A DNA stretch of 64,000 nucleotides. Source: Tubiluchus corallicola (taxonomy: Eukaryota; Animalia; Priapulida). The DNA is taken from the NCBI GenBank assembly GCA_030141605.1, contig JAQGDQ010000057.1, forward strand, positions 1-64,000, written 5' to 3'. Below are positions 18,201 to 21,200 of the stretch, piece after piece (within the stretch, counting starts at the first letter, position 1; each line of letters begins with the position of its first letter). The translations under genes and the position numbers were made by a program. A model generated the notes under the pieces. That model did no database searches and had not been told where the DNA came from. It was given only the letters and a program-made list of their open reading frames with translations.

Positions 18201-21200
18201 CATCCTTTTTGGCTTGTTTCAAAATCATCACTTCTCATTACTAAAAACTCCTGTAAGATGCAATATGTTTGACGTTGATTTTGATGTTCGTGTGACTTTT
18301 GTCTGTTTCCACACTATATTTCACTGACATCATTGAATTATAATAATCATAAGATGTTTTGATTAGTTCTTCCGATGTGTTTTTAAGTACTTGTTGATTC
18401 GCAACAACCACCAAAAAGCAATTTGTTTACTATTGTTTAGTAGTCTTTTTCACATGCATAGTGGTGAAATTATGTTAGCTTTGCATCTTGCATTTGATTA
18501 TTTAAAATGAGTTTGATTGATTAACAGAGCATTGATTATTTTCTTTATTAATCTCTGAGAGGATATTGTTCTGGAAACAAACAAAATCCACCGAGTTTAA
18601 GAAGAGGTGTTCAATTCCTGTGCTGCTGCATGTCATTCATTTATACTTACCACCTTATGAACATTGATATGTGACTTCATTTACAATAGATTGCAAAATT
18701 TGGAATCTTGAGTTTTGGAGAATTCATTTTTATTTAAGTTGGAAAAGGTCTTTCTCCTATATTCTGTATTTCCTTTTTTTGTTGCCTGTACCTTGTCTTA
18801 TTTTGTTTTAGTGTTTTCCCTGTTTTCTTTAGAAACGCTTGCACGTTTTGGCTTAACTTCTGCAAAAGTTTTTGTGCATTGACTTCTCTGACAAATATTC
18901 TTTGAACGTCAATCGCATAAGCTAATGTATTCAGGTCTGAGAATGGTTGAATTAAGTTACTAAATTAACTGCTCAAGCACGTTTTGCCTAGGATTTGGGA
19001 TTGCAACTCTTTGCTGCACAGTATTTTTGTGGGATTTGACAGTTGTTTATCATGATCGCATGTTTCTTTAACATGGCTTCGTTTAACGCAGTCCGGCGTG
19101 CATTCTTAACACAACTGACATTTTGGCCTTTGATGAAGTTTTGCACGGATTTGTTGGCACTGGGCAACGTGGCATATAATAAAATACCCGAAATTGTTGG
19201 TTTTTAATGATTCTTTGAGCAAAACCATGAGAAGTAATTTAGGTTTCTAATTACAGCTATAGTAAGTGTTGTTAATTTTCTGTTAATCACGTCTGTCTAA
19301 AGTACTAAATACTTGTGAAGCCTTAACTCATTTTCTTTTCTCTAATTTCTTTGTTTTTGATTTGAACATTTAATTTGTAGTCTAATAAATCTGCCAGTTA
19401 TGAAACGATAAGCATTATGTGTTAATAGTACATTTTGTATAATAAAATCGTACTAAGAACTAAGAAAGGGGCTTATTTCGTCGGCATTTGGTTTGCAAGT
19501 GAAATTTTTTTCAACTAGAGATAGATTAACATGTGAAAAGTATAAATACCATATAATTTAAATTTTGGCAGTTTGTGTAGTTTAAAGTGGTTACTTCATA
19601 GACATATGTATGAAATGTTGTCTAGTGTATAGGAGTGTGAATCAAAGCAAGGTGGCAGAGGTCTTACGGCCCAATCCACCATCTAAGGCACTTTGCACAA
19701 ATACAGGACCTGTGTTCTGAAACAAAAGTCAGCTTTTCTAATTACGAGGCAAAAAATAAATAAACAAGAAAATATTTAACATTAATTGGAATTGATCTTA
19801 AATTTCAGTATTGAAAAATAACATAACTACAGTTGAGTGAAGTGTAGAGAGCAACATGAAGTTTAGTTGCATATAAATCTAGTGGTGTTATAAGCTTCCT
19901 GTCATTGAAAGCAGATAATTCCATTTTTCTTTTAATTTTTAAAAGTATGCATTTAAGCTCCTAAAAGGATACTTAATAAGCCTTTTCACAGTTCCGTTGA
20001 TTGATGATGACCGTCTAAAGGTCAAAGGTTAAGTGTACCAGACAACGAGTTTGTGTACACTTGACAACACCTCGCAGCCCTTGCTGTTGTAATAGTAATG
20101 ATTTTAACAGCTAGGTAGAACCTACCTAGTTCATTTTTTCTTGTTCCCAAGCAAGATCTTGCTAGTAAATCATTATACGCACAGACTAATGCACAATTGA
20201 ATATAATATGCATTGCTGGAGTTCACTTAACCTTTGACCTGCAGCAGTTGCACGTGCACACAATGAAACTGAAAATTCTTATTCCAAATTTGTCAAGTAG
20301 TAAAATGCTTTTTGTGTGGTTAAATGAGATTTATAGAGCAAATCCATGTACTTTCAGTCATAAAGTTTCTGTGAAGAATACTTCTCACGGTACTTGACTA
20401 TGTATTGCAATTATTGGATCAAGTTTAGGTGATCGTATTGCACTTTGCTTACAAAAGGCAGCTAAACATTTAGTTATTATTTTGGATCTAGTTCATTTTT
20501 TGCTAACGAGCAATTCTTTCAGGTGGAAGCATTGCCACACGAAAAGAGATCATTCGTGGCAAAATTCGTGCTGTCGGTCGAATAGCGCGGTACTATCACA
20601 TACTTAGGTAAGGTGTTTAGTGCTTCCCTCTGGGCAGCGTGCATGCTTGCATGCCCCGAGAGTGTGTGATGCCTCAAATAAACTAACTGCCTGTTTTGTA
20701 GGAGGAACCACGGTTGCACGTAAGGAGGTGATTAGAAACAAGATCATGGCCATTGCAAAAATGGCTCGAGTTTTCTCTGTATTGAGGTGAGAATAACATT
20801 ACTAACATATTGTAATATGTAAATGTTAAATAGCAATGGTGGTTTTCAGAGTCATGCACGTCTACTGGTTTAACAGTGTTAACATTTGTTGCTACATATT
20901 TGTTGTCTAAACTATGGTTATGGTAATGCTTTATGATAATGTATCTTACCAGTTTTACTATATTTATCTTATTTGAAGAAAAATAATGCTAAGAGCGATG
21001 ACCACCTGCTTGTCTGTGGTGCAGCAATGCAAAAAACCTTTACAAAGATGTAATCACGTGCTGTTTTTACGATGTTCAGTACGATATAAAAACTTGCATC
21101 TGTTTGTCGAGCATGTCTTAATAAAATGCATGTAGTTGATGAAACACCTTTAATACGGAAACATTTTTGCATTTTGAATTTGACTATATGTGGTGGTAGG

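Follow-up and report, generated by a model that had tools for sequence, protein, structure and literature searches.

A tandem duplicate of the calmodulin-binding exon in the calcineurin A gene of the priapulid Tubiluchus corallicola

The regulatory region of vertebrate calcineurin A is adjusted by splicing of linker cassette exons (LR1 and LR2) in PPP3CA, PPP3CB and PPP3CC and through the CnA-beta1 form, and only the linkers and the tail vary (PMC12503234); one supplement of a catalogue of human tandem-duplicated exons holds no PPP3C entry (PMC8373072). In Caenorhabditis elegans tax-6, which encodes calcineurin A, contains mutually exclusive homologous exons, 13a and 13bc, which differ in neuron versus muscle use and are non-redundant in vivo (PMC12503234). 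The calcineurin A gene described here lies on the + strand of 64,000 nucleotides (nt) of DNA from Tubiluchus corallicola (GenBank assembly GCA_030141605.1, contig JAQGDQ010000057.1, positions 1 to 64,000), a stretch which at its full length is called the window. Like the vertebrate genes it has a 30-nt LR2 microexon, together with candidate LR1 microexons, but the vertebrate alternatives are cassette or terminal exons around a single invariant calmodulin-binding exon. With tax-6 it shares tandem homologous exons, mutually exclusive in the worm, in the regulatory region; the worm pair, however, corresponds to the exon that follows (linker 2, containing the S443 site), and the helix and autoinhibitory segment, constant in tax-6 (PMC12503234), are what differs between the copies here. 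We consider it probable that the two exons, 11a and 11b, are an old tandem duplicate of the calmodulin-binding-helix exon whose copies are spliced singly, so that two full-length enzymes would arise with predicted differences in calmodulin activation and autoinhibition.

Exon 11a (20523..20607, +) specifies a divergent calmodulin-binding helix and autoinhibitory segment, and exon 11b (20702..20786, +) a near-canonical helix (R401M, G404A) that keeps the ARVFSVLR segment. The positions of the exons, their lengths (85 nt each), the 94-nt intron between them (20608..20701, +; 50% GC), the AG/GT splice sites, the phase (1 to 2) and both peptides were all re-found as given in the initial annotation, as was a CTAAC before each acceptor, 17 nt away in 11a and 16 nt in 11b. 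The proposal that one, and only one, of the two must be used also held in the joined gene model: with either exon alone the modelled part runs for 368 residues to its natural stop, while inclusion of both leads to a TAA at 20721-20723 and omission of both to a TGA at 22734-22736. Both peptides matched the calmodulin-binding peptide of calcineurin in the PDB (best E 2.5e-8 for 11b and 1.7e-5 for 11a), and in a profile scan with a donor requirement the two exons scored 63 and 61, where the background reached at most 16. Aligned with each other, the exons are identical at 44 of 85 bases and their peptides at 12 of 27 residues. The pair is thus a real, intact tandem duplication.

An assembly artefact or a chance resemblance is extremely improbable. 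Copies at this level of identity are too distant to be haplotypes, the profile scores lie far above background, and a contig of run X1, which may be the source sample, spans 20590-20742 with one difference, although only 18 of its letters fall within 11a.

The only RNA-like data are those of run X2, contigs of a relative about 90-97% alike in the coding exons. These contain GT..AG joints across the calcineurin A gene, the LR2 microexon included. A junction from the upstream exon to 20702, proposed earlier as a check, is present: in a 107-nt contig the end of exon 10 is followed immediately by 11b, so 11b is usable without 11a. No X2 contig was placed in 11a, and since contigs drop rare forms and some records were filtered this weighs neither way. 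The X2 contig for exon 12 starts exactly at the AG with which 11a, 11b and the intron all end, and it fits any second upstream path. Contig depths, being unsuited to ranking exons, were left aside.

The earlier suggestion of an old duplication under protein-level selection was borne out by the codon-position pattern and by neutral simulations. Between 11a and 11b, 8 of 28 third codon positions are identical compared with 36 of 57 first and second positions (Fisher p 0.005), and the proportion of synonymous differences (pS) is 0.84 versus 0.38 for nonsynonymous ones (pN), third positions being saturated. Nine of the 12 residues that are identical in the two peptides are specified by different codons. 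When 11a was modelled as neutral since the duplication, across the eight divergence values tried no more than 1.1% of runs gave this pattern free of stops. Nine of the 22 residues of 11a differ from the consensus helix, six conservatively; among 57,491 neutral simulations with nine amino-acid changes, 33 reached this degree of conservatism, the six named contact residues survived in 990, and one combined the two.

The helices of 278 stored proteins were surveyed, yielding 173 helices and 21 distinct variants; eight positions were fixed by the search pattern and the set favours canonical copies. G404, K405, M406 and F410 are constant in these variants and R401 nearly so. Exon 11a alters N398, K405, M406, V409, F410, S411 and V412, and 11b, with R401M and G404A, is also non-canonical, which the initial annotation had missed. 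Divergence in both fits two copies that may share one role. In the NMR work, calmodulin is contacted through the anchors I396, I400, I403, F410 and L413 and the salt bridges of R392, K393, R408 and R414, and G404 is the hinge residue of the bound helix (PMC6151454). All nine contacts are retained by 11b and seven of the nine by 11a, which has I403V and F410Y; the net charge (+7) and hydrophobic moment of 11a equal the consensus values. Since it retains I396, I400, L413, R392, K393, R408 and R414 and has I403V and F410Y, 11a is predicted still to bind Ca2+/calmodulin. The binding of calmodulin by 11b would be altered in its own way, Ala standing in place of the Gly404 hinge.

The autoinhibitory segment of calcineurin acts as a mimic of the LxVP motif and occupies the groove between CnA and CnB. 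In 11a this segment contains four consecutive changes, and its R-Y-Y-H-I-L would seat in the LxVP groove differently from R-V-F-S-V-L. The LxVP motif consists of a polar residue and a hydrophobic one (Tyr in NFATc1), then L-x-V-P (PMC5156906). On the inferred register, 11a matches NFATc1 in having Tyr at the hydrophobic position; a second Tyr takes the L position, and both tighter and looser autoinhibition are possible. The same Val-to-Tyr change occurs in a mutant chain in the PDB (4ORA). An altered phosphoregulation of the 11a enzyme had been proposed on account of its missing Ser at 411, which we take to be a CaMKII phosphorylation site, a prediction and one citation having been found for it. 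The Ser is indeed absent and 11a could not be phosphorylated there, but the argument is weaker than first stated, as the loss is not unusual in itself: Gln stands at this position in 28 of 121 copies retrieved from other animals, and many other animal exons have Gln or Ala. The consensus of a downstream CMK-1-type site, studied in C. elegans, is kept with either exon. The shift between the isoforms could, to judge from sequence, go either way.

Several means by which the joint use of the exons might be prevented were considered. A donor and a branch point can exclude one another sterically when separated by less than roughly 50 nt; the likely 11b branch point, a branch-point-like A at 20686, lies 79 nt from the 11a donor, and steric exclusion is unlikely. 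Docker/selector pairing of the RNA was rejected, the best duplex (-24.8 kcal/mol) being equalled by seven of 40 shuffles and nine of 31 other stretches of the window. The 94-nt intron folded no better than its shuffles (z 0.08); for the 401-nt region z was -2.3. The intron does contain TGCATG twice, at 20640 and 20648 (+33 and +41 after 11a), that is, downstream of 11a and upstream of 11b, and on the + strand of the 64 kb there are only two such close pairs, the other following the LR2 microexon (+45 and +56).

RBFOX proteins bind TGCATG and, in C. elegans egl-15, repress an exon from its upstream intron, and in the pairs controlled by these proteins (C. elegans egl-15 5B/5A and unc-32 7a/7b, mammalian FGFR2) UGCAUG likewise stands beside duplicated exons (PMC3585155). 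The window differs from them in that control is proposed from the motifs, which here lie between the two exons. The geometry of FGFR2 IIIb/IIIc is the same as in the window, with the motifs between the exons. The wrong products stop 63 nt (double inclusion) and 60 nt (double skipping) before the next junction. In C. elegans, 14 of 19 mutually exclusive clusters whose exons are not a multiple of three in length rely partly on nonsense-mediated decay (NMD), which thus serves as a fidelity filter in a comparable way (PMC4165533). Taken together, the TGCATG pair, the RBFOX precedent and the positions of the stops suggest, at the level of motifs, an RBFOX-dependent choice of 11a with clean-up by NMD. 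Exon 11b would be the default; RBFOX-type proteins on the pair would favour 11a and repress 11b, and NMD would remove the transcripts with both exons or neither. An ACTAAC at 20801-20806 (+), 15 nt past the 11b donor, is a QKI-type motif and could oppose the RBFOX pair.

The stop produced by joint inclusion raises the question of whether 11a is mainly regulatory, its inclusion with 11b lowering calcineurin through NMD or giving a short enzyme lacking the autoinhibitory domain. The 94-nt intron, with its 79 nt from donor to branch point, looks spliceable and the frame of the double product ends seven codons after the 11a helix, as this explanation expects, but 27 codons whose protein sequence changes conservatively and spares the anchors would be superfluous in a pure poison exon, and we regard this explanation as quite unlikely.

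A number of points count against single splicing of two working exons. The 79-nt distance means that no exclusion is built in. The link to RBFOX consists of motifs, and about 0.5% of 94-nt stretches of the window hold two TGCATG; the strand bias of this hexamer is modest (30th of 666), and in unc-32 the active RBFOX site lies downstream of both exons, a different geometry (PMC3585155). The constraint seen in 11a covers the history of the exon, and so speaks to past rather than current use. K405, M406 and F410, identical in all 21 distinct stored variants, are broken in 11a. No orthologue of 11a was present among 121 short matches or the full-length proteins seen, in searches that favour canonical copies. 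A search of 50% representatives returned 10 matches, all of canonical type; a degenerate DNA pattern gave no metagenome match; and a profile including 11a gave 630 matches, with none 11a-like among the 120 listed. With 11b as query the orthologue search gave two candidates and one match.

These same results bear on the idea that 11a is a formerly working alternative exon, now silent or nearly so, in a gene that makes only the 11b enzyme. The missing orthologue and the nine of 22 core residues that are off consensus, three at positions otherwise constant, would be expected of such a relic. A silent exon agrees less well with a sequence that has neither stop nor indel, a donor that matches the consensus at seven of nine positions, like those of constitutive exons, a retained CTAAC and a GC content of 47% against 32-34% in the flanks; moreover, 11b too departs from the consensus, as two copies sharing the job would do. 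We therefore judge a silent 11a unlikely and single inclusion of either exon probable.

The same exon was sought in other animals by a metagenome scan, of which the best 80 of 235 loci were taken; 61 of these had the intron-bounded exon, in about 42 sequence groups that were mostly annelid-like, and 22 of 62 exon copies had less than 700 nt of flank on one side. A second copy was found in three of the 61 loci (scores 63-65, next best 17, background maximum 16). Locus L001 contains two 85-nt copies (3410-3494 and 3547-3631) separated by 52 nt. Each resembles the other more closely than it does any further copy (57 of 68 bases), and the first carries E394K and Ala at 411. The 52-nt intron of L001 has a TTAAC ending at +15, which would fit steric exclusion. 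Loci L077 and L079, from one species, have a canonical copy (6008-6092 in L079) and, 489 nt on, a divergent 118-nt in-frame copy (6582-6699) with I403V, V409Y and Glu at 411 and three in-frame acceptor candidates. Three GCATG follow the upstream copy in this species, the only one of 64 donors in the fetched loci with more than one GCATG within 60 nt.

Among the proteins, P0122 spans two copies in one read-through, with about 53 nt between them and E394K again in the first. A bivalve-like group of nine (P0180 and P0293-P0300) has a hidden upstream copy in another frame, some 66 nt from the second; 21 of its 22 residues are compatible, a number that does not exceed 13 in any of the 240 other proteins tested. 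P0300 apparently derives from RNA in which the second copy is joined to exon 12 while the short intron is retained, the outcome to be expected of a short intron that cannot be cut. P0169 and P0232, whose contigs have the same length (3304), may be a further pair but were not counted, as equal lengths also occur in three other pairs of matches, apparently by chance. The bivalve-like sequences (L001, P0122 and the P0180/P0300 group) thus have near-identical tandem copies, 52-66 nt apart and differing at two core residues. All these pairs, with that of L077/L079, are putative alternative exons. The duplication is not ubiquitous, a single copy being present in seven genomic loci that span exons 10 to 12.

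With bivalve-like pairs that differ at only two core residues, a duplication can evidently persist with little change to the protein. Exons 11a and 11b might correspondingly both be used and be functionally near-equivalent, the duplicate being kept for reasons of splicing or expression and the differences being drift. The consensus-like charge and hydrophobic moment of 11a agree with this, but sharing only 12 of 27 residues and having four consecutive changes in the autoinhibitory segment, the same segment that is altered in the L079 copy, do not, which makes near-equivalence very improbable.

The window has its divergent copy upstream and L079 has it downstream, and these two copies share only 10 of 23 residues. 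Separate origins of the exon duplications are the simpler reading of these sequences; one old duplication followed by loss and conversion may also account for them. It is possible, and we put it forward only tentatively, that this near-invariant exon has been duplicated in tandem recurrently, that at least three lineages have each independently built an either-or switch from it, and that two of them converged on V409Y, I403V, the loss of Ser411 and RBFOX clusters between the copies. The mechanism of mutually exclusive exons is well known; its use on the calmodulin sensor of calcineurin, and its recurrence across animals, appear to be undescribed. In line with the initial annotation, we found no published alternative calmodulin-binding exons of calcineurin in a search that left subscription journals largely uncovered; lists in genome-wide supplements could hold such a case.

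The calcineurin A gene is intron-rich, and its exons from 9097 to 27501 (+) join to an open frame. The exons for the catalytic and CnB-binding parts, located by tblastn of stored calcineurins, are 9097-9208, 9903-10048, 10430-10569, 11308-11385, 11808-11902, 12610-12735 and 13934-14011 (exon 10), all on the + strand; they are supported by the open frame once joined, by GT..AG joints in X2 and by a match to Metallophos. No 5' exons of the gene were found in the window. Exon 12 (22699..22796, +; tblastn, open frame and X2 contig) specifies linker 2 and the distal helix and offers a common acceptor to 11a or 11b. The last coding exon (27353..27501, +; tblastn, open frame and X2 joint) contains the autoinhibitory domain and the stop. 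Between them lies the LR2 microexon m4 (23435..23464, +), a homologue of which an X2 contig places after exon 12 and before the last exon, and whose downstream TGCATG pair is at 23509 and 23520. In position and length m4 corresponds to the vertebrate 10-residue LR2 exon, and in sequence it is unrelated. Two in-frame LR1 microexons are unproven candidates: m1, a 39-nt linker microexon (16037..16075, +), has AG/GT sites, keeps the frame and falls in a bin with some X2 cover but no listed piece, and the 12-nt m2 (17624..17635, +) has AG/GT sites and CTAAC at -32. Isoforms of Dreissena and Ptychodera have 4-residue inserts at the position of m2. A third candidate, 19992-20027, was dropped since its donor is weak and it sits in a high-copy repeat. 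Together with the choice of 11a or 11b, m1, m2 and m4 would allow up to 16 isoforms of the regulatory region.

A tree of 18 rows, three partial or odd rows having been omitted, left the window unplaced among the bilaterians. The calcineurin introns contain high-copy repeats at about 19975-20270 and 26060-26260 (X1 depth in the thousands), the first with 20-nt inverted arms at 20019-20038 and 20221-20240. Elsewhere in the window there are a broken element resembling a long interspersed nuclear element (about 47400-49500, +; RVT_1 matches), exons of a GPR158/179-like class C G-protein-coupled receptor (about 53900-59800, +; GPR158_179_EC and 7tm_3 matches) and, in six-frame translations, tandem arrays of about 45-nt and 40-nt units at about 5835-6570 and 60400-61100.

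There is still debate on how the activity of calcineurin is set by calmodulin together with the autoinhibitory segment and the autoinhibitory domain. The known splice variants spare the calmodulin-binding helix, and the exon pairs offer natural variants of that helix and of the segment which covers the groove for substrates and immunosuppressants. The 11a and 11b peptides and isoforms would be ready material for asking which residues set the calcium threshold and the basal activity. The duplicate exons appear to be missing from annotations. That they recur in unrelated animals suggests that two calcium set-points have repeatedly been needed from a single gene. Were recurrent switching of this kind to hold true, a single gene would provide cell-type-specific calcineurins with different calcium thresholds and different access to the LxVP groove, a layer of regulation absent from the vertebrate, fly and worm models.
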